Source: Octopus vulgaris (lineage: Eukaryota). Taken from it: a DNA stretch of 64,000 nucleotides. Below, piece after piece: positions 1 through 59,773 of this stretch (positions within the stretch are counted from its first letter, which is position 1; the number at the start of each line of letters is the position of its first letter). The DNA lies in the NCBI GenBank assembly GCA_951406725.2, contig OX597826.1:23312001-23376000 (forward strand), read 5' to 3'. The position numbers were made by a program, and so were the translations under genes. Under the pieces are notes generated by a model that was not told the DNA's origin, did not search any database, and was given only the letters and a program-made list of their open reading frames with translations.

Positions 1-1627
1 TCGTCACAGGATTACGCACTTTTGCCAGCTTAATGGACTGGAGCAACATGAAATAAAGTGTTTTGCTCAAGAACACAATGCATTGCCTCTCCCAATATTA
101 AGTAAACTTTTGATAGATTTCTGCCTCTTCTGGTTTTTACCCTCCCCTTATTTCCCTCTGAGTCATGGAGAAGAATTTATTTACAATAGAGATATGTAAT
201 CTTTTAGTTAAAATCCATTTGACTTGGTTAGGCACCAATGGGAAAAACACAAAGGGCTCTTAAGCTTTGATCTAAAGAAAGAAAATGCTATTTCTGAAGT
301 GTCTTTGCATGTTCTTACAGAACATCATAAGCAACATCAAGTAACTTATTTGTCCTTCATTACTAACTAAATTCACCCTAACCGCATAATGTTTTTCCTT
401 TTCTTTTCAATATTACCTTGGAACCATTGTCTTATTGTTATCAAAATACTATTTCAGCTAGCAGTACTTACCTATGACTGGCTTCTTAACATAGCACTAC
501 TCTGGTTCAATGTTTCTTTCTTTCTTTCTTCCTTTTTGTTGTTATTTATTTATTGATTATTATTATTATTATTGTCATTCCCCTCTCCCCCCTCATTCTA
601 AGCTGCTTCTTTTAGTAAGGTAGTTCTTGAGTGTACTTTTAGCTGTTGTTTTGTGTACATGCATGTGATAAGAAAACTTGTGGTATGCGAGCTGTTCTTC
701 TTTGGTGTCTTACTAATTAGTGAATTTACTGTTTGTTTAAGTAGAAAGGTCACTGACACAGTAAGGAAATTATTTGCTTATGATTTATATGCTGTAGAAA
801 TAATTATCCCTGTTCTGATTCATATACCATTGCTTGTAACCGGGTCATAACTTTTATGTCTTGTGTGTGTGTGTATATATATAATATATATATATATACA
901 TATATATAATGTGTGTGGTTAAGAAGCTTGCATTCAAACCATGTGGTATCTGGTTCAATCTTGCTGCATGGCACTTTGGGCAAGTTTCTTCTATAATGGT
1001 CCCTTGACAACCAAAAAAAGATGTTTTGAGTTAAATTTGGTTTATTTCCTAACATTAACAACCTTGTATTAATTTGATATTAGCAAAATATTATTGGTCA
1101 CACATACGTAGTGTATGTGTTTTGTTTAAACATCCATTTGCTGCTGGATAACATCCAGGGAAGGGTCCCTACACAACGCCGAGTGTTAAAGAACCGAGTA
1201 TCTAAGACCAGGTGAGACAATTTGCCCCTAAATGATCGAGAATGGTAGATATCAAAATTTCGCTTTCATTGTGTCTTATCAAAACCATGTATTCAGATCA
1301 CCTTGGAATAAAGTGAATTGCTGGTCTGGGGCTCTTGTGCAAATAGAGAGAAGTCTGTTTACTGCCCACTCGGTGTCACGTCAGGAGCTTTCCTTGCATG
1401 CTATCCTGCAGCATATTGCATGGCACTTCGGGCAAGTGTCTTCTACTATAGCCTTGGGCCAACCAAAGCCTTGTGAATTAATTTGATAGAGGAAACTGAA
1501 AGAAGCCCATTGTGTGTGTGTATATATATATATATATAGTCAATTCAAATAAAGAATTCTGATGAAAATAACGGACGTGAGGCTGTGCACAAGAAATGTT
1601 CTAGCTTGACACTCAGTGAAAGGCAGG

Positions 1628-1663
1628 AGTTCGATGTTTCAGGTATAGCTCTTCATCAGAAAG
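1628..1663 (-). ncRNA. Degenerate minimal hammerhead-like motif
   Basis: Minus strand ttt-CTGATGA-agagctatacct-GAAA-ca-TC-gaa. Core boxes are present but stems II and III are damaged. Lies in a ~190-bp insert next to (TA)n inside a SINE. Confidence 0.35.
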
Positions 1664-2509
1664 GAGAAAGGGAAAGGTTCAAAGATGGAGAAGAAATTGC
1701 CAATGGCACACGTGTAGTTACATTGCTGAAGTATGTGTGTGTGTGTGATCCCATCATCACTTGACAACTGTTGTTGGTGTGTTTACATCCCCATAACTTA
1801 GTGGTTCAACAAATGAGACTGATAGAATAAGTACTAGACTTATAAATAAGTCTTGGGGTTGATTTGTTAGACTAAAACCCTTCAAGGCGGTGCTCCAGCA
1901 TGGCCACAGTGGAATGACTGACACAAAAGATTACTAGAAGTGCTTTTATTTTATTTGTTTCAGTCATTTGACTGCAGCCATGCTGGAGAACCATCTTTAG
2001 TCAAGTAAATTCACCCCAAGACTTATTCTTTATAAGCCTAGTACTTATTCTATCGGTCTCTTTTGCCAAACCGCTAAGTTACGGGAACGTAAACACCAGC
2101 AATGGTGGTGGGGGACAAACACACACATATTATATGACAGGCTTCTTCCTGTTTCCATCTACCAAATCCACTCACAAGGCTTTGGTTGGCCCAAGGCTAT
2201 AGAAGAGACTTTCCCAAGGTGCCACGCAATGGGACTGAACCCGGGACCATGTAGTTGGTAAGCCACTTACTTACCACACAGCCACTCTTGTGCTAATGTT
2301 CATAATTTAGTTTTAATATTAGCATTTTTAAAACCAACATAAAGAAAATCAATTTGCAGTTAATTTTTTTTTTACAGCTTTAGATATATTTTTATAGATA
2401 GAATGGATGTAATAAGTAAAAAACAAAAAAAATATTTGACGAAAGTTATATATTCTGGTATGAAGATGTATAATAGTAAGTTTATTTTCAATGTTATGAG
2501 TCATGTGAT

Positions 2510-2728
2510 TAAAATGTCGCAGAAAAGAATTGCAAGACAGATTCTTCAATATATGTAATCTGGCAGGAGACCTTGGGGTCGACCAAGAATGAGACAGTTG
2601 GATAATATCCGTTGTGTCAGTCGGTCATACTGGGGGATCCAGCTGGAAAGTGTAATGATGGTTGCTTCTGACAGGTCTCTACTCCAACAACCCTCTCAGG
2701 AATAGTATGAGAAGAAAATGAATGAATG
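2510..2728 (+). mobile_element. RTE-clade LINE 3' fragment
   Basis: From 2562 encodes GRRPWGRPRMRQLDNIR...WGIQLESVMMVASDR (RTE-type GRRPRGRPR.RW.D.I C-terminus); ends in (GAAT)n. Confidence 0.65.
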
Positions 2729-3596
2729 GAGGAGTCTTTGAAGGACTACATGTTGCTAGTACATTCCATGCCAAAAATGGAACTAGTCCTCCAAATAACT
2801 GACACAGATCTTGACTACTCATTTATTCAACCCATACCAGCATGGAAAATGAACAAAAATAATTTGCTTGGGGTTAAAAGTGCAGAGCTTACAGTCTCAA
2901 TCGGGCACTAGTCAATTTTTTCTCTAGTTTACCCAAAAGCAGTTCTAGCAGGGTTTAAACTGAAGGACATGATCAGACATTCTGATAGATTTGTCTAAGC
3001 CAGTTTAACCCTTTTCCATACCAGCCTGTCCCACAAACCACCCTTGGTTCTGTGATACAAACTTCTGTTCTAAAGGTATCTATATTTAAACATTGCATCA
3101 GAATATCATACTTATGTTCCAAACACCAGCTTGACACATCTGCCATATGCACCACTGGTGGTACATTTTCATAATTTGAGGAAATATTTTATTTTCTATC
3201 TTTGACATGGTTTCAAGGATATTTAAATGACATGAGTAGTAAATATTAAGCTTTAGCCCTTTTGTTATTATATTTCTGTTGAGATGCTCTGTGTTTCTTT
3301 CATTTAACTTTAAATATAACAAAGAATTTAGTAAAATAACTTAGTTATCATGAAACTAGTGATAGGAACATAATGACTAAGGTTTGGAAGATTTTAATTC
3401 AGAACTTTTGAAAACAAGACAGTCGTACTACAGAGCCAGAGGCAGTTTCAGGCAGGTTGGTATCAAAAGGGTTGATATGAAATATTGTAAAAATGCAAAA
3501 AAGAAAATTACATTTCCTTGTAATTAAATAGTATGCAGTGTGACTGAAAATATGTGGCATCAAGTTCCAATAACAGGCCATGATGCTTAATGTGTT

Positions 3597-3963
3597 AATA
3601 ATGACAAGTATAGTTTATTAAATTCTTCATTATTTTCAAAATTAATTGAAACAAAAGCAGTTTATTTTCATGGAAATATGGTAACAACAGGGTTAATATT
3701 GACAGTTTTGTTTCTACTGAAAGTTTAATTATTTTCCAAATGAATTGAAACAGTATATTTCAACAAAAATATGATATCAAAAGGGTTAATAATGACATTT
3801 ATTTTACTAAAATTTTTCATTATTTTCAAAATGAATTCAAACTAAGGGAGTGTGTGTTTCAATATAAACATAGTAACAACAAAAAGGTTGATAATGACAT
3901 TTTCTAAATTCTTCATTATTTTCAGAATTAATTTCAACAGGAATATGGTAATAAAAGGGTTAA
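3597..3963 (+). repeat. Degenerate tandem array of four ~90-bp units derived from a MITE end
   Basis: Unit taatgaca...ttcattattttcaaaattaattgaaac...aaatatggtaacaaaagggttaa repeated four times. Confidence 0.7.
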
Positions 3964-6900
3964 CTTCCAATGCCTAAGCTGTGTTTCAGTAGTATTTAGT
4001 CTTCTATAAAGTAAACCTCAGTAAAATTTGAACCACACAACTAGATAAGCTCTGAACATGTTATTGACAAGTATCAGATTTTAAGACTGAATCAAGTTTG
4101 GATTTTATGTATTGCATTATTATATACCTTTTATTTATTTCAATCATTGGACTGTAGGTATACTCAGTGGCACTTTGAAGGGCTTAGTAAAACAAATTGA
4201 CCCCGGTATTTATTTTCTTTTTAAAGTTTGGCTTTTATGCTATCAGCTTCTTTTGCTGAACCACTAAGTTACAGGAACATAAACAAACAACACCAGTTGT
4301 CATACAGTGAGTGGGGTTAGAGAACAAACACATGCACACATGGATTTGTGTGTCTGTACACACACACATAACAGGTTTCCACACAGTTTCTTTCTACCAA
4401 AATCACTCACAAGGCAATGATTCACTTATGGCTATAGTAGATATTTGGCCAAGGTGCTACACTGTAGAGCTGAACCCGAAACCATGTGGTTGTGAGCTCC
4501 TTAACCACATAGTCATGCCTTAAGTTAATCAAAGCTATACATTTGTATGTGTGAGGGTAAGAGAATATGTAGTCCATTAAACTGAACTCTAGTACGTCTG
4601 GTCTTTGATTTATTGTGGGTTAGGGATAAAGAAGTGCTAAAATTCTGGTTTACCCTTGTGCATTAAAAGCAGAATCATAGTGCAAAAGTTATCTTTTTGT
4701 GTAAATTTTATTTTAAAATGTGTAGGCATTTTATGCTCACAAAGTTGAATTGTTTGTTTAGAATCTTACATACATTGATTAGCACTTAGTATTTGTGTGT
4801 CACATCATCTTATAATAATTCTGCTTGTCATTCCATTACTTATCCCGTTGGTAACACTTTCACATGATTAAAGAAAGAGAGGGAGAAAGAAGCGTCCATG
4901 ACGTGATGTAGAGGAAATGTAATTGTAGCGCTTTCATGTGCTTAGTTGAAGGGAAAGAAAGGAGACAGATAAAGAGGAGAGAAAAAGAGGATAAAGCAAA
5001 GAGGGAGAGAGAAAAAAGCAGAGAAGTATCCATGACATGAGGTAGGGGGAATGTAATATTTATTACATGGTTGAAGGTAAAGACAGAGGAGAAGAGCTTA
5101 ATATATAATTTTAGCAGAAGGGTGATGTTCTGATGGTGAGGTTAAAGAAAGGTAGAGAGAGAGATGATGACGACAGTTGTGGAGGTGGCAGGGGTGATTG
5201 GATAGTGAAAAATGTCATTTTGTTATTGAAGTAAGTTTTTTATATCACCTGTCACTTAATGCATGTGCATAAGTGCAATTCCATGAAATATTCATGCTCA
5301 TTTACGTGGCAGATATATGCAATTTAACTAAAGGTTGTTTCATATGTATGGGATTTTTATGAGTTCTGTGTATTAAGTCTATAAAATTGAGCATAAAGTA
5401 TATAAAGTGCATTAAGTAATCATTGAATTCCAATTTCTTTCACTTTTCAATGAGTAGCGGATGAGTGATTATCTTTCCATACAGACTCAACACAGGCAAC
5501 ACTTTCAGGTTTTTTGCATAAAGTTTTCAGGAATAACCCAATAGGTTTACCATTAATTCCATGAAATATTCCCAGGTCCTGCTAGTCATCATCATTGTTT
5601 TAACATCCACTTTTCCATGCTTGCACAGCTGAGATGGAATTTGCTTTGGCAGACTCTCTATAGCCCAGTGCCATTCCGGTGGTCAACCCTCACCTGTTTC
5701 CAAGCAAGGCTATATTTCCTTATGACCTGGCATGTTTTTACAGACTTTTGGAAATGGACACCACTTGTATGACAGTGACACTCATTTACAACTATTGCAT
5801 AACGTCAAGTAAAGTAGGCACTAGAGCAAGCACGCACACACATGGTAGGCTTTTTTCAGTTTCCATCTACCAAATCTGCCCACAAGGTTTTATGTTAGGT
5901 GCTATAATAGAAGATATTTGCTCATGGTGCCACTTTGAGGGAGTGAACCTGAAACCATGTCATTGGGAGGCAAACTTCTTCACTGCACAGCCATGCCTAT
6001 GTGTGAGGGTATATATACACACATGATTGTGCCATGTACACACTCTTGAGTCTAACAGAAAATCAAAATTCAATTGCATTGTTTTTTGTTTTCTTCCCCT
6101 TTTCTCCCTCCCCATTGCTATAAATAGTATTAACCTTTTCAAAATCTACTTTTGCATTGCACAGTTTACATCACAAACTTATTCTGCCTAAAAAGCATGA
6201 TGGGAATTTGGCACAATAATAATGGGAGAAACAACTGGCCTAGATACTTTGTTAACCTAGCTTGGTATCTCATGTTTCTGTCTTGGTTCTTGCTGGAATC
6301 AAAGCTGCAGGGTGAAGTTAATGGAATTGGTAATTATAGCTAGTGTGACTTGAGGGTGATAACAAGGACGTTGCAACTTGCGGCAAGACAGATTGATAAT
6401 ATTCTTTCAGTGAACAATTCCAAGAAGGAAAACGTTGTGCAGTTAGTTATTGTTTAGCCACAGGTGAACCCCAATTGAGCAGACCTATGATCAAGGGCAT
6501 TTCAGATGTGGCCACCCTGTCTTTCTTTTTCATACATGTTGGAGACACTGAACCACATAATCCAACATTTTTTTTTTTTTTAAGATGGTGTGATGTGATT
6601 TGAGGGAGATCTGACTGCAACTTCTAACAGGTTGAGTTACCATGTAGATACTCCCTTACTGAATTATCATATATCATAGTTTTTCTTAATTATAGGTTTG
6701 CTCTATGACCAAAGGTGTCCCAGTGGTACTTTCTTATTTTTGACTTCCAATTTGATTTTTACTAAAGAAACTAGAAGGCAAAAATGTAAAAATAATTGTT
6801 TTGGACAAAAATTCTTTCACAAGAAGAAACAATCACGCAGTTTCTTGCCTTGTTCTTTCTCCATAAGATTGTGATAGCTATTCCAAAAAACCTACTGATA

Positions 6901-17297: not shown

Positions 17298-18142
17298 CTA
17301 GCAGAATTGCCCGGCGTTGCTCGGGGCTGAATTGCTTGAAAGTACTGTTAATGATTGCGCTGAATGATGATGATTATTCAGGCAAATATTGATATAAGTT
17401 TACGCTGGGAGATAAGGACTTAACGATCAAACGTGTGCCATTGCATTGTTTTGGGGGAACCAAATTTCTGATGAACATTATAGGGGCACCAGCTTTAAGT
17501 TTGAGAATGTGTGGTGGTAGTCCGGGGTGCTCAAAGGAATTGAGTACCTCTATTGGATAGTTGATGACGTCCTCTGGGTCAGGAGTTGTATCGATAGACT
17601 GATATACATAGACTTCCCCAGGAATGAGTTTTAGCATTTCATCATTAATATGGTGAACAGTTTTATTCCTCGGGGCCAGTATAGCCTTTTTGCCAATCCA
17701 ATCCATATTCTGATAATTAGCTTGTAGATCTGGGAACACTGCATCTCTGAGATCAGAAGGCATCTTAACAATGGTACAAATGGAATCGATGGCAATATTA
17801 CCATTTTCATCCCCTGGTATTTTGCTTTCGCCAAGTGCAATGAGGGTGTGAGGAAATGCTGCTGATGTGATATTACGTCGCATATGAGCACGCATATTGG
17901 TGTGAAGTTTGAGAGTTACTTCCCTTAATTTTAAAAAATGCATTAAAATGGGAAAAAATGATGGTAAATTATTTGTAAAATCGTAGACTCATCGTAGACA
18001 CGCGCTAATACCCAGAAAGGCTCGATATGAATCACGACTATAAGATACTCGGTTTTGGTTAAACTGCATCGCAAAATGTGGGAGTAGTTAGGAATCTAAA
18101 TCGGAGTAGACAGACACACAACCTTTCTTTTATATATAAAGA
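17298..18142 (-). mobile_element. Internally deleted Helitron carrying a helicase fragment
   Basis: Minus strand starts A|TC at 18142 and ends CTAG|T at 17298, with a subterminal GC hairpin (gcccggcgttgctcggg). No TSD. Contains the PIF1-like ORF. Confidence 0.92.
17374..17943 (-). pseudogene. Helitron RepHel PIF1-family helicase fragment (189-aa ORF)
   Basis: Motifs AILAPRNKTVHHIN, YQSID, YPIEVLNS..PGLPPHILKLKAGAPIMFIRNL and CNGTRLIV are typical of Helitron PIF1 helicases. Walker A/B and the Rep domain are absent. Confidence 0.9.
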
Positions 18143-20494: not shown

Positions 20495-20709
20495 AGATAT
20501 CTAAATTGAAATAAACAAAGTAGATCGTTAGAAAATTTCCATAAGAGATGAAAGTAGTAACTATACTGAGAAGTAATGTTTATCACCAACATGGCTGTTC
20601 CGTAGGAACTAGCCACTTTCCTTGTTGCAAATTCAGTGACCAGTTGTCACTTACTTTTCAATACATTGCAAGCTGGAGCAAACTACTGCTATCTCTGGCA
20701 TACAGGTGT

Positions 20710-20758
20710 CCACTGCTGAGGATGAGCGCAAATAGCTTGAAACCAGATGGTCTGGTAG
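20710..20758 (+). ncRNA. Hammerhead-like motif, partly degenerate
   Basis: ccactg-CTGAGGA(20716-22)-t-gagc gcaaata gctt-GAAA(20739-42)-cc agat gg-TC-tggtag. Complete core, stems II and III formable, stem I weak (two G-U pairs). Confidence 0.55.
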
Positions 20759-21960
20759 TCCCATTGTTGCTGGAGGGTTTGCTCCCCTGCTTGCAATATA
20801 TATCAGGTGCAGATTGCATTGATAATCAGCTACAGGAGGTATCCACCTGGGGTTAAAAACGGGAGTGAAGTCAGTTCCTACAGAATGGCCATACTAAATT
20901 GAAATTGTCCATCAAAATTTTATGCTAATTTGCCCTAAACTCCAGTTTAATAGTGATGACAAATTATTTTACTAAATTTTTCATTATTTTAAAAATTAGT
21001 TAAAATAAGGTACTGTATTCTTTTCTACTCTAGGCACAAGCATGACTGTGGTTAAGAAGCTCACTTTGCAACCACACTCGGTTTAGGTTTCAGTCCCACT
21101 GTGTGGCACCTTAGGTAGGTATCTTGTGCTATAATCCCAGGTCAAACAATAATTTGTGAGTGAATTTGGAAGCTGGAAACTGTTGTGTGTGGAGGATAGG
21201 ATTTCCTTCAGTCATGAATGACCATGGGATTGCACCTAGAAAGTTGTCTTCCAAGACACAAGTTTGGGCAAGGTTGTTTATGGAAGACCAGCAGTTGCCC
21301 ATACATACCAGCCTCCCCTTTTCATGCCACTGATGTTATCCAAGGGAAAAGCAAGGGCCAACATAGCTTGGCACCTGTGACATTGCAGCTCATTTCTACA
21401 GTTGAGTGAACTGGAGCAACATGAAATAAACTGTCTTGCTTAAGAACACAACAGACAGCCTGATCACAGAATCGAACCCACTACCTCATGATTGTGAGCG
21501 CAATGCTCTGACTACTGAGCCATGTGCTTTATATGTATGAATATATGTGCTTGTATGTTTGTCTCCTTGTCTTCACATCATATGATAGTTGTAAATGTGT
21601 ATCACTGTCCAACAATCATGTAACAGTTTCTTCATTGTCTTTTATCTTTAACTTTTATTTGTTTCAGTCATTAGACTGTGGCCATGCTGGGGCACTGCCT
21701 TGGAAAATTTTAGTTGAATGAATTGACCCTGGTACTTATTTTTCATTTCCAAGCTTAGTACTTATTCTATCAGGCTCTTTTCCCAAACTGCTGAGTTATG
21801 GGGAGGTAAACACACCAACACCGGTTGTCAAGCAGTGGTTGGGGCTCAGACACATACACACACACACACACACACATCTATATATATATATATATGAGAG
21901 AGGATGAGAAAAAAAAAATTGACACCAGAAAAACCAAATGTTACGTAATGAACTTCATTA

Positions 21961-36070: not shown

Positions 36071-36779
36071 GTATCCTTCTATTCATTTGCCAGCATCTTG
36101 TATGTTTTTCTGTTTTTTCTTTCTTTTCATTTCTTTCTCAACTCTTCTGCCAGCAAGCAGGCTAGTTAAACTATTAGTTAAATCTGAGCTACTTTAATCA
36201 ATGTAGTGGGCCAAAAAGTTTTTTAATCAGTTAAAGTTACATCCATAACAAAAGAGAAGTTAGTGTTAGTAACAATTTTTGTCAAGAGGGACAAAAGGAG
36301 AGAATTCTGAAATTTAAACTGATTAAAAATTAAATGGATTTAAGCAGTTAACTTTAGGTTGTGTCTAATATTCAGAACTATCTGATGATGTCTAAACTTT
36401 TCTTTTTATTATTGTCTGATATAAGGCAACAAGCTGGCAGAATCATTAGCACTCCTGGTGAAATGCTTAGTTGTATTTCGTCAGCCAGTACGTTCTGTGT
36501 TCAAATTCTGCTGAGGTCGACTTTTCCTTTCATCCTTTTGGGGTTGATGAAATAAGTACCAGTTATGCACTAGGGTTGATATAATCGATGAGCCTACTTC
36601 CCCCAAAATTTTCAAAGGCCTTGTGCCTAGATTAGAAATGATTACTGTTTAATATAGTTTTGTTTAGATCATTTTATCAGTGTGAGTTTAAAGATTGAGG
36701 GCAACTGACAACTGAAACAAAGAGCCGTGTGTTTTATATTGCAATGAGCTCAATCACTGGTTTACATCATTTATGATGT

Positions 36780-37308
36780 AAACCAGGCAGGACAAGTGAG
36801 CCCAGCCCACTTATGCATGCCTTTCCTCCCTTGGACACAAAGACCTGTTGAGGCAAGCGAAGTCGATATCGAACCTCATCCGACGACAGGCACCCATGCC
36901 AACCCCCTTTGCTTGCGAAGACATGTTGGGGCAAGTGAAATCGAAATAATCCTATGACTGGCACCCGGCAGATGCCAGGACCCCTGGACTGGTGGTACGT
37001 AAAAAGCACTATCCAAATCGTGGCCGATGCCAGCGCCGCCTCGACTGGCTTCCGTGCCGGTGGCACGTAAATTGCACCAATCCAACCGTGGCTGTTGCCA
37101 GCCTTGCCTGGCACCTGTGCGGGTGGCACGTAAAAAGCACCCACTACACTCACGGAGTGGTTGGCGTTAGGTAGGGCATCCAGCTGTAGAAACATTGCCA
37201 GATAAGACTGGAGCCTGGTGCAGCCTTCTGGCTTCCTAGATCCCTGGTCGAACCGTCCAACCCATGCTAGCATGGAGAACGGACGTTAAACGATGATGAT
37301 GATGATGA
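36780..37308 (+). mobile_element. SINE/retroposon family C with (GAT)n tail (representative)
   Basis: Internal gccggtggcacgtaaaaagcac repeats; 3' part ggagtggttggcgttagg...ccatgctagcatgga...gacgttaaacgatgatgat. Other copies at 11620-11947, 34040-34360, 44010-44430 (+) and 40184-40470 (-). Confidence 0.8.
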
Positions 37309-38849
37309 TAACCAAACTGACAAGGGAGTGTGTATAACTCAGTTCCGAACAAATATTTAAAAAAAAAGTAGTAGAATTTCTTTTGCTTTTCTTGTTCAAA
37401 ATTTACCTCCTTCATTGAAAGATGGGCTTCCTTGTAATTTCCATGTGCCAAGTTCTACTCACAATATATTGGTCAACTCGAAGCTACAGTAGAAGATAAT
37501 TACCAAAAGGCATCATGCAGTGAGATTGAACCCAGAACTACTTAGTTGAGAACTGAATATCTTAGCCACTTAGCTATGCCTATTTTGTGACATTTTTTGT
37601 ATGCTTTGTTCAGATGTCTGAAATGTTTCACATTTGCAAAGGTCAGTGTTAATGAAATTCATAAGGTTCTTGACATCCACAAATTATATTATTACTTTTA
37701 ATCGCTTTCAGCTGCTTGACTTTATTGTGGTTGTTATTGTTGTTGCTGCAGCTAGCTGCTATTGATTAAATTGTTTATACAAACATTTGATTATTATTAG
37801 TATTAAGGCAGTGAGCTGGCAGAATTGTTAGCACACTGGACAAAATGCTTAGCAGTATTTTGCCCCTTTGCTACGTTCTGAGTTCAAATTCTGCCAAGAT
37901 CAACTTTACCTTTCATCCTTTCTTGGTCAATAAATTAAGTACCAGTTGAGTAATAGGGTCAGTGTAATTGACTATTACCCTCCCCCAAATTTCAGACCTT
38001 GTGACTATAATAGAAAAGATTATTATTATTTAGGCAATGAACTAGCAGAACCATTAGCATGCCAGGCAAAATGCATAATGGCATTTTGTCCATCTTCGCA
38101 TTCTGAATTCAAATTCCGCCAAGGTTGACTTTGCTTTTCATCCTTTCAGGGTTGATAAAATAAGTACCAGTTGAGTACTGGAGGTTGATGTAATCGATTT
38201 ATTCCCTCCTTGAAATTGTTGGCCTTGTGCCAGAATTTGAAACTATTATTATTATTATTGCATCATCAATCTAGTCCGATTATTTTATCTGTACATGTAA
38301 TTGCTTCTAGTCCCTCACAGAGAGTCTACACTAACTTTGAAAAATCCTCCTACTGTCATTACACGATCATGATAACTCTATAAATAACACTCTAACATTT
38401 AACTTTTTACTAGATATGTTTCTTGTTTAGGCCTCATCTTCTCTGTTGGATTCATTTTCATCATCTAACATTCATTTTCTATGCAGGCCTGGGTTGGATG
38501 ATTGGCAAGAGCTGGCAAGCCAGAGATCTGCACCAAGTTCCAGCTGTCTGTTTCAGCAATGTTTCTACCGCTGGATGCCCTTCTTTATGCCAACCGCTTT
38601 ACAGACTGTACTTGGGTGCTTTTTATGTGGCACCAGCACAAAATTCATCTCAAACTCTCCTTCTCTGCTCTGCAGTTGTCTAACACAAAATTTTTTTCAC
38701 TCCTTCAACCATAACAGGGTTTTTGGTCCTGATGAGGTTCTTTTCATTATCCTCAAGCCAGGGTATGAGATCTCTTGCCACAGCTATTTTGGTACCACTT
38801 ATTGGGCATTGCTGATTCAACACTAACTTGACATCAGACATTTTAATGT

Positions 38850-38960
38850 TTCTCTCTCCCTCCTTCTCTTCCTCTCTCCCTCCCTCTCTTCCTCTCTCCC
38901 TCCCTCTCTTCCTCTCTCTCTCCCTCTCTTCCTCTCTCTCTCTTCCACCCCTCTCTCTCG
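38850..38960. repeat. CT-rich polypyrimidine simple repeat
   Basis: (CT)n and CCTCT runs; a similar tract lies at 52890-53080. Confidence 0.9.
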
Positions 38961-39580
38961 CCATCCTTATCTTTCTCAGTCACTCTATCTGTATGTTTAT
39001 ATTTCTGTGCATTCATGTGTGTATGTCTGTTTGCCTACAGTGCCAAAAAGTACTTTCATCAAAACAGGTTGAATGTCCAGTCAGCCATGTCAATCATCAG
39101 CATCCTAACAGCTGTACCCAGTTGTCTCATTCTGCTCAATCCATGCTTCAGAGCCTCCTGCTGCTTATTCTCATTAAATTCATCAATCTTTCCCTCCATT
39201 GGGATACAGCCAATCTGTCAAACCACTTTACAGTATGATCCATTCTCAAAAAGGGCTCTTTCTCTGACTGACCATTACTGGCTATCTCTCTCCCCTCTTC
39301 TCTCATTGTTGACAGAAACAGTCTTAAATAAATCATTTTGTCCAACTTCTGTCACTCTCTCTCTCTCTCTCCCTCCTTTCTCAGATACAGCTAATATGGT
39401 TTCTGCAGGACTGGTTTTAGTAGGGACCTTACCTCCTGAGAATATAGGTGAAAGCAGTGTTGCCCTTCACATGAGTACAACCTTTGATGCTTCTTGGGAA
39501 CCTCCTGGAATGGTACTGCTACACATACACAAGCATGTAGTTATACTAAAGGGACAGAGGATGTTGAAATATTAAAATTA

Positions 39581-39951
39581 CAGTGATACCTCACCATACA
39601 AGATTAATTTCTTCCATGACCAAGCTCATCTTACAATTTATGCGTTTTACAAATCAACTTTCCCCATTGAAATTAACTACAATGTAATTAATCCATTTCA
39701 GCCTCCAAAAACCACTCAATAATTTTTTTATGGGTTTTAAAACAGAAAAAGTAAAGTTACAATGTAGTTAAATGGCAATTATAAAAAAGATAATGCAAAA
39801 GAAATATGTAAACTGGTTTTATTAACTGAATTACCTTAGAGATGGGACAATTTGTGTACTCATCATACTGTAAGACAAAAATTCACACATGTCTCGGCTC
39901 GTACAGCAAATTACTCATACAATGAGACCCTTGTATTGTGAGGTTCTGCTG
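39581..39951. mobile_element. Tigger/pogo-like MITE
   Basis: TIRs cagtgatacctcaccatacaag / cttgtattgtgaggttctgctg with TA TSD; ends about 110 bp upstream of the U12 branch site. Confidence 0.75.
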
Positions 39952-40082
39952 TATTTGATTCCCCAAAGTCAACTTTGGTCAGGTGTCAAAACATAAGGCA
40001 TGGGGAAGTGGCAGGCCACTGTTAGGCAGGGGAGAAATTTCTATCATTTTTGAATGTTTGTTCTTTAACTAAGATATCACAG

Positions 40083-40172
40083 GTATATGGTGATGGAGTT
40101 CTGTGTCGGCGAATTGCAAGAGATGCTTGAAAATACTCCAGAGAAAAAGTTTCCAGTTTGGCAGGCCCATGG
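40083..40172 (+). CDS. STK11: STK11/LKB1 coding exon 3 (90 nt)
   Basis: cacag|G TAT ATG GTG ATG GAG...; encodes [29 protein letters not shown](G); donor GG|gtgagt. Not in the supplied ORF track. Confidence 0.97.
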
Positions 40173-40984
40173 GTGAGTATGAGGTCATCATCATTTAACG
40201 TCCGCTTTCCATGCTAGCATGAGTTGGATGATTTGACTGAGGTCTGGTGAACCAGATGGCTGCACCAGGCTCCAGTCTGACCTGGCAGAGTTTCTACAGC
40301 TGGATGCCCTTCCTAACGCCAACTACTCCGAGAGTGTAGTGGGTGCTTTTATGTGCTACCGACACAAGAGCCAGTCAGGTGGTACTGACAATAGCCACAC
40401 TCAAATGTTACTTTTTATGTGCCACCTGCACAGGAGCCAGTCCAGCGGCACTGGCAGTGACCTCGCTCGAGGTTTTATAATATAGATATTTCTGTTTGCT
40501 GTTAAGCTTTCTTTAAAACTGGACCAAAAAGATATTGTAGACTGGAATTCATTTCATATATTCTTTTATTTGTTTCAGTCATTTGAGTGTGGCCATGCTG
40601 GAGCACTGCCTTTAGTCAAACAAATCAACCCCAGGACTTATTCTTTGTAAGCCTGGTACTTATTCTATCGGTCTATTTCGCCAAACTGCTAAGTTACAGG
40701 GACGTAAGCACACCAACAGCAGTTGTTAAGCAATGGTGGTGGTGGTGGTGGGCGGGGGGCAAACACAGACACACTAACATATATATACATATACATATAT
40801 ATATATATACACACACACACACGACAGGCTTCTTTCAGTTTCCATTTACCAAATCCACTCACAAGGCTTCGGTCGACCTGAGGCTATAGTAGAAGACAGT
40901 TGCCCTAGGTGCTACGCAGTGGGAATGAACTTGGAACCATGTGGTTGGTAAGCAAGCTACTTACCATACAACCACTCGTGCGCC

Positions 40985-40985
40985 T

Positions 40986-41036
<51 letters not shown>

Positions 41037-41135
41037 TATATACATATATATATATATACACACACACACATATATACATATATATATATATACACTCATA
41101 CACACACATATATACATATATATACACACACACAC
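40985..41135. repeat. Compound (TA)n/(CA)n microsatellite
   Basis: Directly visible; source of the low-complexity YI/HT ORFs in the track. Confidence 0.95.
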
Positions 41136-41629
41136 ATGTGTGTGCATGTAGATGTGCATGGCTTAGTGGGTTGCACCAGTGATCATAGAATTGTGGTTTT
41201 GATTCCTGGAGCAGGCAATGTTCTTGAGCAAAACACTTCATTTCACATTACTCCCATCCACTCAGCTGGCAAAAGTGAATATTTCTGTGGTAGACTGGCA
41301 TCCTGTCCAGGGAAGAATATGTATAGGCCACAGAATCCAGTAAACTAACCTTACAAGCCATAGCTTAAAAAAGGTTTTTATCCTTTAGATACAGGTGTGT
41401 GTGTATAAACATTGAACAATGAGAATGTGCGTTCACCATCACATGGATGTATAAAATTTCTTTGTGTATTGAGACTACTATTGGTTTCATATTAAAATAT
41501 CTTAATATCTTTCTCTCTATATATATGTGTGTGTGTGTGTATATATATATATACATATATATATATATAAAACATTATTGGTGAATTGAAGAAATGGAGC
41601 TGAACGCAGATTGAACAGAAATCGTTTTA

Positions 41630-41719
41630 TTTCATTCTACACGTGTTTCGAAAGGCACAAATTACCAAAATCCGAATTGAATGATGGGACCATATTGTGT
41701 CTTTCTCTTCAGGAAGAAA
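41630..41719 (-). ncRNA. Mirror copy of the minimal hammerhead ribozyme
   Basis: Reverse-complement copy in the left palindrome arm (tcttcag 41706-41712, tttc 41646-41649, cacgtg 41640-41645). Core intact; the 1-nt indel falls in the stem II loop region. Confidence 0.85.
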
Positions 41720-41899
41720 ATAGGAAATCCGTTGGAAAAACAAAAACAGAACAGAGGCGGAGCAAAAACAAATCGAACTCTGCTCCTAAGAGCCCATGGC
41801 GAAACTCTCGAAAGTTTCGCCATGGGCTCTTAGGAGCAGAGTTCGATTTGTTTTTGCTCCGCCTCTGTTCTGTTTTTGTTTTTCCAACGGATTTCCTAT

Positions 41900-41988
41900 T
41901 TTCTTCCTGAAGAGAAAGACACAATATGGTCCCATCATTCAATTCGGATTTTGTAATTTGTGCCTTTCGAAACACGTGTAGAATGAAA
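41900..41988 (+). ncRNA. Minimal type I hammerhead ribozyme (sense to STK11 pre-mRNA)
   Basis: ttc-CTGAAGA(41907-13)-stem II gaaagacacaa/ttgtgcctttc-GAAA(41969-72)-palindromic cacgtg-TA-gaa. Predicted cleavage after GUA at 41980. Stem I ttc/gaa extends further with one bulge. Confidence 0.85.
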
Positions 41989-42197
41989 TAAAACGATTTC
42001 TGTTCAATCTGCGTTCAGCTCCATTTCTTCAATTCACCAATAATGTTTTAATTTCAATTATCCGCACCAACGCACGGTTGCAACACCATATGGTTGTACC
42101 TCCAACCGTGCTGTTTACTGCTGTGATTTTTGCTACTAAGGTATCGGTTAAACTTTTGATTAATCTACTACAAGATTATTCATCTTTCTATTTCACA

Positions 42198-42241
<44 letters not shown>

Positions 42242-42676
42242 TCTTTTTCTCTTTGTCTGTCTGTTCCTTATGCATTCTCAAATGACTCCACCAAATCAAA
42301 TCAAATTTTACAAAGTAATAGTTGTTACACCCCACGAGTGTTGACATGTAATTTTGTATATGAGTGTGTATGTATCTGTGAGTGTATGTGTATTTGTTTG
42401 TTCATTGCTTATAAGATAGTAAAGGACATTTTATACCACGACGATGACACATCTCTATCATTCTCTCTTCATTCTGTCTAGCATTTACTGTTGTAACAAT
42501 GTCTGGTACCAAAAAAATTATTTTAGCTACTTTCATTGTTTACAATCTTCTGTACCAGTGTATTTGTGAACACCAACTCATAGAATGTTAGAAAGGCTAA
42601 AAGGTCAAACAAAAACATTGTACCGGTGTATTTGTGTATCAGTAAATAACCATGGGTAAATATTTTGTAAAGAACC

Positions 42677-43262
42677 TGTTTGTTTAAGACAAGCAGGAGG
42701 ACCCAGTTTCACTCAGGGGTGAACTTGTTTGTACCTCGGTGTGAAATTATTTTTTTCTACAGGTTTTTTTTTAGTGCATTCAATGTATCTGACCTCCAAA
42801 CTCACTGCAAGCCACTCTTTTCCCCAAAAAGAATGTGGGGAGGGGTCAAAAAATTATTTCACAGCGAAACATCAGCCAGTCCTTTATCACAAATAGCTGT
42901 TACGTGGTAGTAGGGCATGCTACAAATAGCTGCCAAAATCTTTCCTTTTCTGGGGAAAGAATCCGTTTACATGCGATTTTGATGTCACATTCGTTGAAAG
43001 CATGCGAAATAACCTGGGAAAGAAAAACAAAGACCTGTGAAACAAAACTCTGTTGGTGGGAAACTGAGGTCCCCAACACCCCTACACTCCTTCTTTTCCA
43101 GAAAACTGTGGCTTGCAGCAGGTTTGGAGGTCAGATACATTGAATACACTCGAAAAAACTTGTGGAAAAAATTATTATTTCACACCGAGGTACAAACAGG
43201 TCCTTTACGAAATATTTACCCCCCGAGTGAAACCAGGTCCTCGTGCTTGTCTTAAATAAACA
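42677..43262. mobile_element. Long-TIR MITE / fold-back element
   Basis: ~75-bp TIR tgtttgtttaagacaagcaggaggacccagtttcactcagggg...gtacctcggtgtgaaat with an inverted counterpart at 43170-43262 that has a short insertion. Confidence 0.8.
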
Positions 43263-43383
43263 ATTTTTCAACGCAGGAGGGATTGGTTTGGTGAGTTGTG
43301 TTCTGTCTTGCCTTCGAGGCGCACTGGAGTCGAACTAGTGACGGCTGATGAAGGGGATTTTTCCTTGTGTGGTTTGTCCTGTA

Positions 43384-43506
43384 CTCTGTTTTTCTGTTGT
43401 AAAAAAATGGTTTTTCCGTTTTCGTTTCTCGTTGAGTTCTGCGTCTCTGTTTTTCTGTTGTGAAAAAGTGTTTTTTCTGTTTTCGTTTCTCGTTGAGTTC
43501 TGCGTC
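43384..43506. repeat. 61-bp tandem duplication
   Basis: ctctgtttttctgttgt...cgttgagttctgcgt occurs twice (starts 43384 and 43445) with a few substitutions. Confidence 0.9.
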
Positions 43507-45234
43507 TAGTTGTGGTGTCCTGTACTCACGTATATGTGTTTATATATACATGTATATATGCATGTGGATGTGGGTACGTACATGTGTGTTTGTGTGTATG
43601 CATATATTTTATTTATTACACTATTGTTTGACAGCGCCCTCGCGTCGGTTCGATTCAATTCGTTCCGTTCTTATTCTCCCAGTACTGTTTTATATATATA
43701 TGACAAGCTTCTTTCAGTTTCCACCTACCAAATCCACTCACAAGGCTTTGGTTGGCCTGAGGCTATAGTAGAAGGCACTTGCCCAAGGTGCCATGCAGTG
43801 GGACTGAACCCAGAACCATGTGGTTAGGAAGCAACCTTCTTACCACACAGCCACACCTGGTGATTGTATTTTATTTAATTTAAAGCAGAAGATTCTTTTC
43901 TCTAAATAGTTAGATTAATCTACAAATTATGACATAATTTTTCTTCTTTTTCCTTTTGTGTATGTTACATTACCATTTTTTTTTTTTACATGACTGGCAT
44001 ACATGCTTGTGGATTGCTAAGATTACCATACGAGCATGATCGTTGCCAGAGCAACAAGCTGGCCTCCATGCCGGTGGCATGTAAAAAGCACCATTCAAAC
44101 GTGATCATTACCTGCATCGCCTTACTGGCACCTGTGCTGGTGATACGTGAAAAAACAGTCGAGCAAGGTCATTGCCAGTGCCGGCACACAAAAAGCACCA
44201 TTTGAGCGTGGCCGTTGCCAGTACTGCCTGACTGGCCCTCGTGCCGGTGGCTTCTGAAAGCACCCACTACACTCTCGGAGTGGTTGGCGTTAGGAAGGGC
44301 ATCCAGCTGTAGAAACTCTGCCAGATCAAGATTGGAGCCTGGTGCAGCCATCTGGTTTGCCAGACATCAGTCAAATCGTCCAATCCATGCCAGCATGGAA
44401 AGTGGACGTTAAACAATGATGATGATGATGAGCACATGGAGGAATGGAGTTCATCTCCGTTTTGGATGAAAACACCCATATATATATAAATGCACAAGTA
44501 TTTTCAAGCACCAGATGAAAATTCTTAAATGTAATAACGTCAATATTGTTTTCTTTTTTCCTTTATTTCGTTCCATTCATCTCCATTTCATTTCCTTAGA
44601 AAATCCGAAGACTTTCTGTATCTGTATATAAATAAATTCCCTCCTTCATTTCTTCTGACTAACCTCATTATTACTAATATACTATTTTGTACACTGCAAA
44701 AAATGTTTTACATATATATGTGTTCATCTTGTATTATCATCATCATCATTTCTTGGCTAGGTCGCTTGGTTTAACACAAGAATGTTATAATAGCGCTGCC
44801 ATCATCATCAACAGCTAGGCTAAGCTAAATCAGCTGAGCTTGTTACATCATCATCACTATAGTCCTCATCTGTTAGCATATCTTTATCACTACAACCATC
44901 AAAACTGCACCATCACACCTACTTTTCATGTCAGAGGTAACTTGTGCATTTGCGAAATAAGTTTGTTTATTGTGGAGTGCTTAGATTAACCCTCATGTGG
45001 CACATCAGAGTAAATCAGGCTCTTGATTCCTCACAATCTCATTTCCTTTTCTCTGTTAGTCATACGTGTGCTATCACCACTACCACCACCAACTCTCTTA
45101 CTACTACTACTACCTCTTTCTCATATTTGTGCTGGCCATCTGGTCGAGTTATATTTGTCCATCTTTCTTCTCTCCTCATCATTTCTTTCCTTGTCTTCAT
45201 GTTGTTTTAATATTTTTGTGCTATATATTTGCAG

Positions 45235-45367
45235 ATACTTTGATCAGTTAATTGATGGTCTTGAATACCTCCACAGCCAACGCATTGCTCATAAAGATAT
45301 CAAACCAGGCAACTTGTTGCTGACTACTGATGAAACCTTGAAAATATCAGATCTAGGAGTTGCTGAG
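45235..45367 (+). CDS. STK11: STK11/LKB1 coding exon 4 (133 nt), catalytic loop and DLG motif
   Basis: ttgcag|A; encodes [44 protein letters not shown] (HKDIKPGN and DLG are typical of LKB1); donor GAG|gttgaa. Confidence 0.97.
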
Positions 45368-45491: not shown

Positions 45492-46086
45492 GTAATCTTG
45501 ATCTCCAACCTAAGATGGAGGTTGTGTTAGAACAGAGAATACTACGTTATTTGCCTTGAGAAGATCTCTCAAAGACTTGTGGTGCATTAAAGCACTTATA
45601 ATTATGTCATTGACAGATGAGAATCATCTGCTATGGCTGTTGGAACTGCCAGATCACATGATTTCACCCTGCTATGGGTTCCTCAGTGACAGCTGTCCAT
45701 CACTGACATAACAGCTGAATCTCCTGTCAACCAAATATAGAATCTCAGTATCTATTCAGGCACTGGTGTTGCAAATATCATCACTATTAATTATTTTTTA
45801 ATAAACCCACTGGTTATTTGCAGTCTCAATGCCTAAATAGACACTGAGATTCTATATGACTCTGACAAGAGATCCAGCTGTTATGTTGCTGCTGGACAGC
45901 TGTCACTGAAGAATGCATAGCAGAGTGAAATCATGTGAACTAGCAGCCCTGGTGACTGTAGCAGACAATTGACATCTGTCAACAATGTAATTACAAGTGC
46001 TTTTATGCAACACAAGTCATTAGATAAATAATGCTGTATTCTATGGTCTAACACAACCTCCACTTTAAGTTGGAGACCAAGATTAC
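45492..46086. mobile_element. Diverged fold-back (hairpin) element, ~285-bp arms
   Basis: gtaatcttgatctccaacc...ttgcaaata is inverted against tatttgcag...gttggagaccaagattac, with a short AT-rich loop near 45780-45813. Confidence 0.85.
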
Positions 46087-47024: not shown

Positions 47025-47161
47025 GCTGTTGGATGGTTTGCCGAAGATGATACTTGTCATGCCAGTCAAGGATCTCCTGCCTTTCAACCACCAGAGATTG
47101 CCAATGGACTTGAAAGTTATGCTGGTTTTAAAGTGGATGTCTGGTCAGCAGGAGTGACATT
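47025..47161 (+). CDS. STK11: STK11/LKB1 coding exon 5 (137 nt), activation segment
   Basis: Polypyrimidine tract plus catag|; encodes [45 protein letters not shown](L); donor TT|gtaaac. Confidence 0.97.
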
Positions 47162-48317: not shown

Positions 48318-48805
48318 TATTAATAGTTATCGCCAAGCTAATATGGCAGTCCATAAATATAGGACGAAAGCTGCCATTGATTAGCTCCAAGAGGCCATCG
48401 CTTCTAGCTAGCTAAGTGACACATGAACCTGTGTCCATTATAACCTTCGAACAGAGGAGGTCAGGTATCTGCAGAGTAGCCGAACCCAGTAAGCGTCGCT
48501 ACTGACCATCTGTTCGAAGGATTATTTAACTAAATTCAGTGGAATACATCCACTAGTTTTCAAAAATAGAAATATTATTTCTAAGTCTCTCTAAAGGAGA
48601 TAAAGGGCAAATACCCTGAAACTAGTCTGCAGATGCCTGACCAGCAAGGGGAAGTGGCTGACCTCCCCTGTTCAAAGGTTATAATGGGCACAGGTTTGTG
48701 TATCACATAGCTAGCTAAAGGCGATGGCCTTTTGGAGCTAATCAACAGCAGCTTTTGTCCTATATTTATGGACTGCCATATTAGCTTGGCAATAACTTAT
48801 TAATA
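48318..48805. mobile_element. Long-TIR MITE, ~147-bp arms
   Basis: tattaatagttatcgccaagctaatatggcagtcc...ggtcag (48318-48464) is inverted against 48658-48805. Confidence 0.88.
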
Positions 48806-58245: not shown

Positions 58246-59773
58246 TCCATCAAAACTTCATGCTAATTTATATTCGATACATGAGCTTAATTATGACAGT
58301 TATTTTAATAAATTTCTCATTATTTTCAAATTTAATGGAAACGAGCAATTTCAACAGAAATATCGTAACGTATTTTGCCTTTTTCGGTTTTCCATACATC
58401 ATGCTCTGATATACCTGGACACATCATCAGTGATGCTTCATGAGGTCATCAAATGTTTCATGTCTTTCAACATCAGACACCTTCACCCAGGTGACCCAGC
58501 CAAGGTTAACCGAACCCCACCTTGTGTCCAGTTAGCCCTACCCCTTCCAAAGCTTGCCCCCTTCTGATCCACAGCCACCTTGAAGTAACCTCTGCTACCT
58601 CCACAGCCAACGTGATGGTTTTCTATTTGCTGACCCCTGCAATGCCAAGCAGGTTCTGGGCTCTACAGAGGGACTGCCCTGCAAACTATACTTTGCTTAC
58701 CACTCATTGTTTTAGCATGGCTTCACCAACTCCAGAAATCTTTGAAGTGGTGGGTTTTTTTTTTTTTCCAAACTAATATTACAGGTGTGGCTGTGTGGTA
58801 AGAAGCTTGTTTCCCAACCACATGGTTCCGGGTTCAGTTCCACTGTGTGGCACTTTGGGCAAGTGTTTTCTATTATAGTCTCAGGCCACCCAAAGCCTTG
58901 TGAGTGAATTTGGTAGATGAAAACTGAAAGAAGCCCAGCGTGTGTGTTTATGTGTCTGTGTTTGTTTCCCCCCCCCATCGCTTGGCACTTGATGTTGGTG
59001 TCTTTACATCTGCATAACCTAGCGGTTTGGCAAAAGAGACCAATAGAATAAGTACTAGGCTTACAAAGAATAAGTCCTGTGGGAGTCGATATTTGTTCGA
59101 CTAAAGGCAGTACTCCAGCATAGCCACAGTGAATTGACTGAGGCCATGCTGGAGCACCGCCTTTAGTCAAGCAAATTGACCCCAGGACTTTGTAAGCCTA
59201 GTACTTATTCTATCGGTCTCTTTGGATGAATCGCTAAGTTACGGGGATGTAAACACCAGCATCGGTTGTCAAGCGATGCTGGGGACACACACACACACAG
59301 ATATATATATATACGACAGGCTTCTTTCAGTTTCCGTCTACCAAATCCACTCACAAGGCTTTGGTCAGCCTGAGGCTATAGTAAAAGACACTTGCCCAAG
59401 GTGCCACGCAGTGGGACTGAACCCAGAACCATGTGATTGGTAAGCAAGCTACTTACCACACAGCCACTCCTGTAATAGAATAAAATGTCCATTAATATTT
59501 GTTCTTAGGTAATGGATAGCTGAATGGTATTTCATCTGTCTTTACATTCCAACTTCAAATTCAACCAAGATCAACTTCACTTTTCATCCTTCAAGGATTG
59601 ATAAAATAAGAACCATCTAAGCATAGGGAGTCAATGAAATCGACCCCCCCCCCACACACACACACGAAATTGCCGGCCTTGTGTCAAAATTTAAAAGTAA
59701 TATTTGTTCTGATATTTAATTTAGATTTTTTTTTTTTTTTTTCAAATTATAATTTATATTTTGTCTTTCACAG

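Follow-up and report, generated by a model that had tools for sequence, protein, structure and literature searches.

One copy of an abundant ~390-nt repeat, joined to a 5' mirror copy of itself, forms a near-perfect palindrome in an intron of STK11/LKB1 of Octopus vulgaris, and we consider it probable (at roughly 0.7) that the pair was inserted into a (TA)n microsatellite by the enzyme of a Penelope-like element (PLE), the mirror having been made by cDNA fold-back. More tentatively, and at somewhat less than even odds, the repeat would be an octopod non-coding hammerhead retroelement of ~390 nt with fixed ends, whose copies record cDNA fold-back at a variable point and whose arms share mutations. 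The locus itself is ordinary; any wider importance would lie in the family and the record it keeps of fold-back synthesis. The making of inverted repeats is described, in parts of two accounts (PMC8557442, PMC3846280), as an unsolved step of PLE transposition; joints with one fixed and one variable end, together with private changes common to both arms, point to one route, for which many natural copies offer a test. If this is true, the choice among cDNA fold-back, twin priming, and antisense-RNA self-priming would be decidable from genome sequence alone.

Arrangement of the palindrome and its host gene

Self-alignment of the whole 64-kb stretch of DNA that was analysed (hereafter the window) resolved a 483-bp inverted pair into a left arm of 242 nt (41568-41809) and a right arm of 241 nt (41810-42050), which was the window's sole inverted self-match of at least 90% identity that is over 52 nt long. 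An earlier note on this DNA had described a near-perfect palindrome with one mismatched pair and one 1-nt indel, a 150-bp one-sided tail, and (TA)n flanks, and all of these were confirmed. Aligning the arms gave a single mismatch, C at 41807 against A at 41812, and a single indel that leaves the right arm short of one G near 41953. The mismatch falls at the third pair counted from the palindrome centre, and what was called spacerless with one mismatch is therefore equivalent to a perfect stem with a 6-nt loop at 41807-41812, with TCGA at its centre; judging from the predicted fold, this centre is likely the fold-back point. The one-sided extension runs for 150 nt beyond the right arm (42051-42200) and contains a hairpin at 42072-42112 (z -2.9, 0 of 200 shuffles), and any target-site duplication made at insertion would be hidden within the (TA)n. 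The features are as follows.

40175-45234, plus strand: host GT-AG intron of STK11/LKB1, flanked by exons that correspond to O. sinensis protein residues 223-253 (before it) and 253-297 (after it)
41540-41569, no strand: left (TA)n target microsatellite, its final TA common with the left-arm end (2-nt microhomology)
41568-41807, minus strand: inverted element copy (equal to element positions 41812-42050), without the last 150 nt and with the family GG kept at the indel
41633-41722, minus strand: mirror hammerhead motif, core start at 41712
41807-41812, no strand: 6-nt centre with the self-complementary TCGA at 41808-41811; in the DNA fold, a tetraloop closed by T-G on the minus strand
41813-42200, plus strand: one full unit (~390 nt) of the high-copy hammerhead-bearing repeat, 5' end near 41812-41816
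41897-41990, plus strand: type I hammerhead motif, sense to STK11, with a predicted cut after 41980 and a palindromic helix III at 41972-41979
42051-42200, plus strand: one-sided 150-nt part of the unit, with the hairpin at 42072-42112 (shuffle test of the fold)
42202-42237, no strand: right (TA)18 target microsatellite (repeat sequence)

The host gene was recognized by comparison with STK11 of Octopus sinensis, to which eight exons match over residues 194-479, in order on the plus strand and weakly in the last case (E 0.35); residues 1-193 fall outside the window. STK11 was the best solved-structure match of the exon at 45235-45367, and the exon at 47025 shows no difference from STK11 of either Octopus sinensis or Argonauta hians. 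With the exon at 40083-40174 before it and the one at 45235-45367 after it, the element is placed in STK11 as the earlier note had it, and its host intron is intron 3 by human STK11 exon numbering. The preceding intron (36071-40082) carries U12-type signals with GT-AG ends (5' GTATCCTT, branch-like TTCTTTAAC), and we take the matching human intron to be U12 AT-AC.

A high-copy repeat family and its head-to-head joints

The right arm and its extension together make up a single copy of a ~390-nt high-copy repeat. Contigs were aligned to positions 41740-42200 for 4 of the 24 sequencing runs listed (X1, X2, X3, and X18, the last being one of 11 putative RNA runs), a reference that omits the flanks and the greater part of the left arm. 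The earlier note had looked to related dispersed copies, and a high-copy family was borne out by 80-5997 fitting contigs per run in these four runs (5997 in X1, 1078 in X2, 354 in X3, and 80 in X18). The 3' boundary near 42200 is drawn from listed pieces whose ends fall at 42195-42199 together with the adjoining (TA)n, the reference itself having ended at 42200. Diverged copies retain the 3' strand of the hairpin stem (42072-42112) with a different loop, and another copy adjoins a microsatellite (X18 loose end at 41809). Variable sites avoid the hammerhead core and its proximal helices (0 of 47 sites, compared with 21 of 269 lying beyond the motif; Fisher p 0.03, or p 0.009 with loop 2, 10 of 33 variable, added to the background), which suggests that selection on the element maintains the motif.

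The insertion is of a known type, the arrangement itself having already been published for PLEs. A search of openly accessible papers found no paper on this octopus family, and the O. vulgaris repeat library, the supplement of PMC13282606, or that of bioRxiv 2026.07.22.740005 may already contain it; O. vulgaris is credited with 31 recently active Penelope-like families in part of PMC13282606. The exact 25-nt motif occurred in 0 stretches of metagenome contigs and 0 of viral contigs, and had 0 hits in the PMC8557442 supplement, where line breaks could conceal it. The octopus PLEs of that supplement, Hydra-1_Obim and Naiad, share the (TA)n preference; the Hydra-1_Obim hammerhead sits about 100 nt from its 3' end and differs, as do its flanks, from the present repeat, and the Naiad ends differ as judged by eye. 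As far as its letters go, the present repeat is thus distinct from both families.

The inverted arrangement claimed for this locus proved to be family-wide. Besides the locus itself, 15 distinct joints (12 plus 3 more) were found among other copies in the four runs, all of them head-to-head, and two were re-read from the intervening letters. One end falls at 41812-41819 in 11 of the 15, against ~2.6 expected if ends were even over the 47 positions where joints are visible, and the opposite end varies from 41840 to 42150. These counts are to be read knowing that joints are readily visible only with one end in 41810-41856, that the reference favoured ends near the centre, that some joints are possibly non-independent (alleles of one locus), and that they are silent on which arm has the full 3' end. 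Across the four runs no joint extends upstream of 41812, the sole opposite-strand joint likewise ends at 41813, and no head-to-tail joint is among those listed, contigs showing presence and not absence. One X1 copy forms a perfect palindrome with no spacer, its centre at the TCGA inside the element (41843-41846). In 3 of the 15 joints the variable end lies where the 3' hairpin (42072-42112) has its base, at element positions 42111-42117, and a single joint ends at 41980, the predicted cut site, a match that chance could give.

The two arms also share private changes. Both carry C at 41936, where the family has T in >99.9% of the depth in X1 and in 100% in X2, X3, and X18, and both have one additional T at 41943/4 relative to the family; at the indel, the left arm keeps the family GG and the right arm is one G short. 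Since two changes that are rare or absent in the family are common to both arms, one of the arms is likely a copy of the other, made by cDNA fold-back.

The earlier note had also held the insertion to be probably young or polymorphic. Among the runs, 20 of 24 (10 studies, three organisms) contain 0.37-0.66 of 71 words sampled from the locus. Taking these 71 words as a random draw of distinct 31-mers, family-like words make up 0.39 of the total, and many runs stand at 0.37-0.38; on the same assumption, family plus unique flank words make up 0.71, against 0.66 in the best run, and the whole locus would give about 0.94. The shares thus match the family, or the family plus flank, and not the whole locus, so that the sampled animals seem to hold both flank and family without the insertion. 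Counts of this kind are compatible with a copy that is young or polymorphic, and with a different population or species too.

How the insertion may have formed

By the fold-back route, a GIY-YIG nick within the (TA)n would prime reverse transcription at about 42200, and the cDNA would extend to the fixed 5' end of the RNA, about 41813. The 3' end of the cDNA would then anneal back on itself, here immediately via the TCGA hairpin and further in for other copies, be extended on the cDNA itself up to 42050, and join the other (TA)n end through the TA microhomology. The one-G difference between the arms is not produced by fold-back alone; one G would later have been lost from the right arm, or the difference may be a sequence error. 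We infer these steps (nick, copying, fold-back, and joining) from the palindrome shown here, its flanks, the family, and the joints.

The insertion likely works like a PLE. As in endonuclease-positive PLE insertions, in the parts of PMC3846280 and PMC8557442 that describe them, a head-to-head inverted copy, a palindromic junction, and a one-sided extension occur together, the hammerhead lies in the repeated end on both strands, and a (TA)n target conceals any duplication. Among published PLEs a copy that is inverted and 5'-truncated frequently lies alongside, tails are one-sided, targets include (TA)n (e.g., octopus Naiad and Hydra families), and Penelope-13_HM has HHR on both strands (parts of PMC8557442); palindromes at head-to-head junctions have been interpreted there as self-priming (part of PMC3846280). 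Unlike those insertions, the locus has no ORF, the family seemingly has a fixed 5' end, and there is almost no spacer here; the PLE tail is 30-40 nt versus a 150-nt one-sided part in the present case, which may include a shorter tail. Hence, the earlier attribution to a PLE stands as regards arrangement and (TA)n target, which match published elements, but it finds no enzyme nearby, as no reverse-transcriptase or GIY-YIG frame was among the 131 frames scanned in the window. A 72-codon frame at 41982-42197 gave 28 candidates, of which none reached E 0.01 among longer proteins, no Pfam match, and an Atlas best of 0.79; it was rejected as coding, its 2 hits in 1.84 billion representatives both being sums over tandem repeats of unrelated proteins. 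A MITE or foldback DNA transposon was likewise set aside: in place of fixed terminal inverted repeats, the mirror ends 150 nt short of one end, and the junction differs from copy to copy.

The main rival to fold-back is two-primer synthesis by a dimeric PLE enzyme, which we regard as unlikely. Here, a dimeric reverse transcriptase-endonuclease would nick both (TA)n strands, copy two RNAs of the same locus, perhaps held together by their palindromic helix III, and join the cDNAs via TCGA. Such a route accounts for the difference between the arms, it could draw on the predicted helix III self-duplex (-10.3 kcal/mol), and an anole PLE protein is described in part of PMC11167929 as cutting and extending both strands, starting reverse transcription inside the RNA, and being a predicted dimer. 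However, two rare changes present in both arms require both RNAs to come from one rare source, and two full-length cDNAs would leave both ends fixed, whereas most joints have one variable end.

It is less probable still that the unit represents one monomer from a non-LTR retrozyme, a tandem, circular-RNA-forming element, and that the palindrome was made later by DNA-level fold-back repair. The ~390-nt unit does lie within the 170-400 nt of animal retrozymes (part of PMC7229834), which are like it in being non-coding, with a type I hammerhead, in high copy, and intronic; dispersed monomers occur, and a derivation from PLE pLTRs has been proposed (parts of PMC7229834 and bioRxiv 2026.07.22.740005 for the likeness, of the latter for the derivation). 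Unlike retrozymes, the present family has inverted joints throughout and no tandem arrangement or head-to-tail joint among those listed in the four runs, the locus holds a single unit, and the fixed end differs from the cleavage site.

Slightly lower again we place an assembly error, in which the left arm would stem from a fold-back chimeric read. The exact centre is in no listed contig piece (32 of 7581), and the best word share is 0.66; a chimera, however, would mirror on through the flank, whereas the mirror halts at 42050 and is followed by unique flank, with STK11 exons in order on both sides. The arms moreover differ at two places, with the family allele in the left arm, and similar joints occur in short-read contigs from three runs that are DNA or carry no label. 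Fold-back in a PLE-type insertion remains our preferred account of the palindrome.

Hammerhead motifs, predicted folding, and the host transcript

The earlier note had placed a hammerhead core on each arm, and both were recovered, at 41907 on the plus strand and, as its mirror, at 41712 on the minus strand. The plus-strand motif has the type I order (CUGANGA, GAAA, UH, and three helices): CUGAAGA at 41907-41913 leads into helix II (41914-41924/41958-41968; 10 of 11 paired, G10.1-C11.1 present, 33-nt loop), then GAAA at 41969-41972, with helix I 9 of 10 paired and a 2-pair helix III whose loop is ACGU, ACACGUGU being self-complementary; the cut is predicted after 41980. A descriptor search gave 4 hammerhead hits in the window versus 0.02 per window in 200 shuffles. 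Hammerhead was absent among the 49 Rfam matches in 40500-43500, and Hammerhead_1 run on a 131-nt stretch aligned model positions 1-45 of 45 at 14.8 bits (E 0.49), under the gathering score of 34, for which the long loop 2 is likely the cause. The Rfam miRNA matches in 40500-43500, all under gathering, were discarded as a product of hairpin shape, and the 3' part of the unit had no credible Rfam match.

The motif is a PLE hammerhead variant with a small palindromic helix III. Like the PLE hammerheads of Cervera and de la Pena 2014 (PMC4209133, in part), it has a type I core, a long helix II, G10.1-C11.1, a palindromic helix III with loop, and dual opposite-strand motifs 100-700 bp apart; that account includes dual min-HHRs at this spacing and a variant with a small palindromic helix III. 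The strict min-HHR defined there has no helix III or loop 3, unlike the 2-bp helix III, 4-nt palindromic loop, and 33-nt loop 2 predicted here. Thus, "minimal type I hammerhead", the wording of the earlier note, holds for the type I core and not for the strict minimal class, since helix III exists.

In isolation the motif is predicted to fold poorly, with pairing probabilities of 0.02 for helix I, 0.015 for helix III, and 0.49 for helix II, and a hammerhead fold of -4.5 versus a best fold of -15 kcal/mol. Once transcribed within STK11 pre-mRNA, the arms would pair into a duplex of ~240 bp (predicted energy of the palindrome RNA -432 kcal/mol) masking the ribozyme, the hammerhead pair probabilities dropping to 0.0000 in predictions of the full duplex. 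The two motifs lie on opposite strands, and an active dimer is therefore impossible within one RNA. Lunse et al. are said to have found dimeric cleavage of PLE hammerheads. The earlier claim that the duplex masks the ribozyme is hence supported by prediction, but self-silencing was overstated: with helices that form poorly even without the left arm and no same-strand partner, it adds little. Single PLE hammerhead motifs are reported as inactive in part of PMC4209133 and as protein-dependent in part of PMC11167929, and with the weak isolated fold and the second motif on the other strand this leads us to expect that little would be cleaved even if unmasked. A search of openly accessible papers found no paper on a self-masked intronic hammerhead. 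An AATAAA at 41987-41992 (plus strand, one of 3 in the host intron) comes right after the predicted cut, and a pyrimidine tract ending in AG (41890-41912, plus strand) lies at the core start; both are sense to STK11 and within the predicted duplex.

Editing of the predicted duplex by ADAR, and its dicing, are plausible; a lizard Penelope is described as massively A-to-I edited (part of PMC5625713). Each similar insertion would add a long perfect duplex to the pre-mRNA of an animal with very high A-to-I editing. The duplex is nonetheless likely a passive consequence of the insertion, an ordinary by-product that bears no sign of host function, and not a control switch of STK11.

The next STK11 intron contains an older head-to-head palindrome of an unrelated family (45492-45765 / 45827-46086; 209 of 260 matches, 80%; arms 61 nt apart). 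Its minus strand bears a type I hammerhead of canonical appearance at 45629-45705 (Rfam HH9 E 3.4e-4, 24 bits against a gathering score of 52), and its plus strand has a decayed mirror hammerhead near 45906. Twin-hammerhead structures thus recur, can persist, and decay, and are not special to the site at 41568-42050; such recurrence and decay in STK11 speak against a special role for the palindrome there. That the host retained the hairpin for STK11 regulation, whether by a ribozyme unmasked under some conditions, by editing, or by small RNAs, is very improbable: the sense-strand motif with an intact core inside the pre-mRNA, the strength of the predicted duplex, and the very strong hyper-editing in octopus (part of PMC5625713) are set against word counts that fit absence from other sampled animals, a motif predicted to fold poorly alone, and an older equivalent in the next intron that has decayed.

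Several other elements were seen in the window. A single hammerhead-like motif without mirror copy lies at 20701-20775 on the plus strand (descriptor hit at 20716, Rfam HH9 E 0.61), the STK11 sense strand, upstream of the window's first exon. Two MITE-like elements, whose terminal inverted repeats are long (about 115 and 148 nt), occupy 42724-43200 and 48318-48805, and a minus-strand frame at 17377-17988 carries a Pif1 helicase 2B domain (Pfam E 8e-14), likely a Helitron remnant. Imperfect palindromes at 58777-59477 (80%) and 1779-2096 (75%) appear on visual inspection to be copies of a very common repeat and carry no hammerhead hit.
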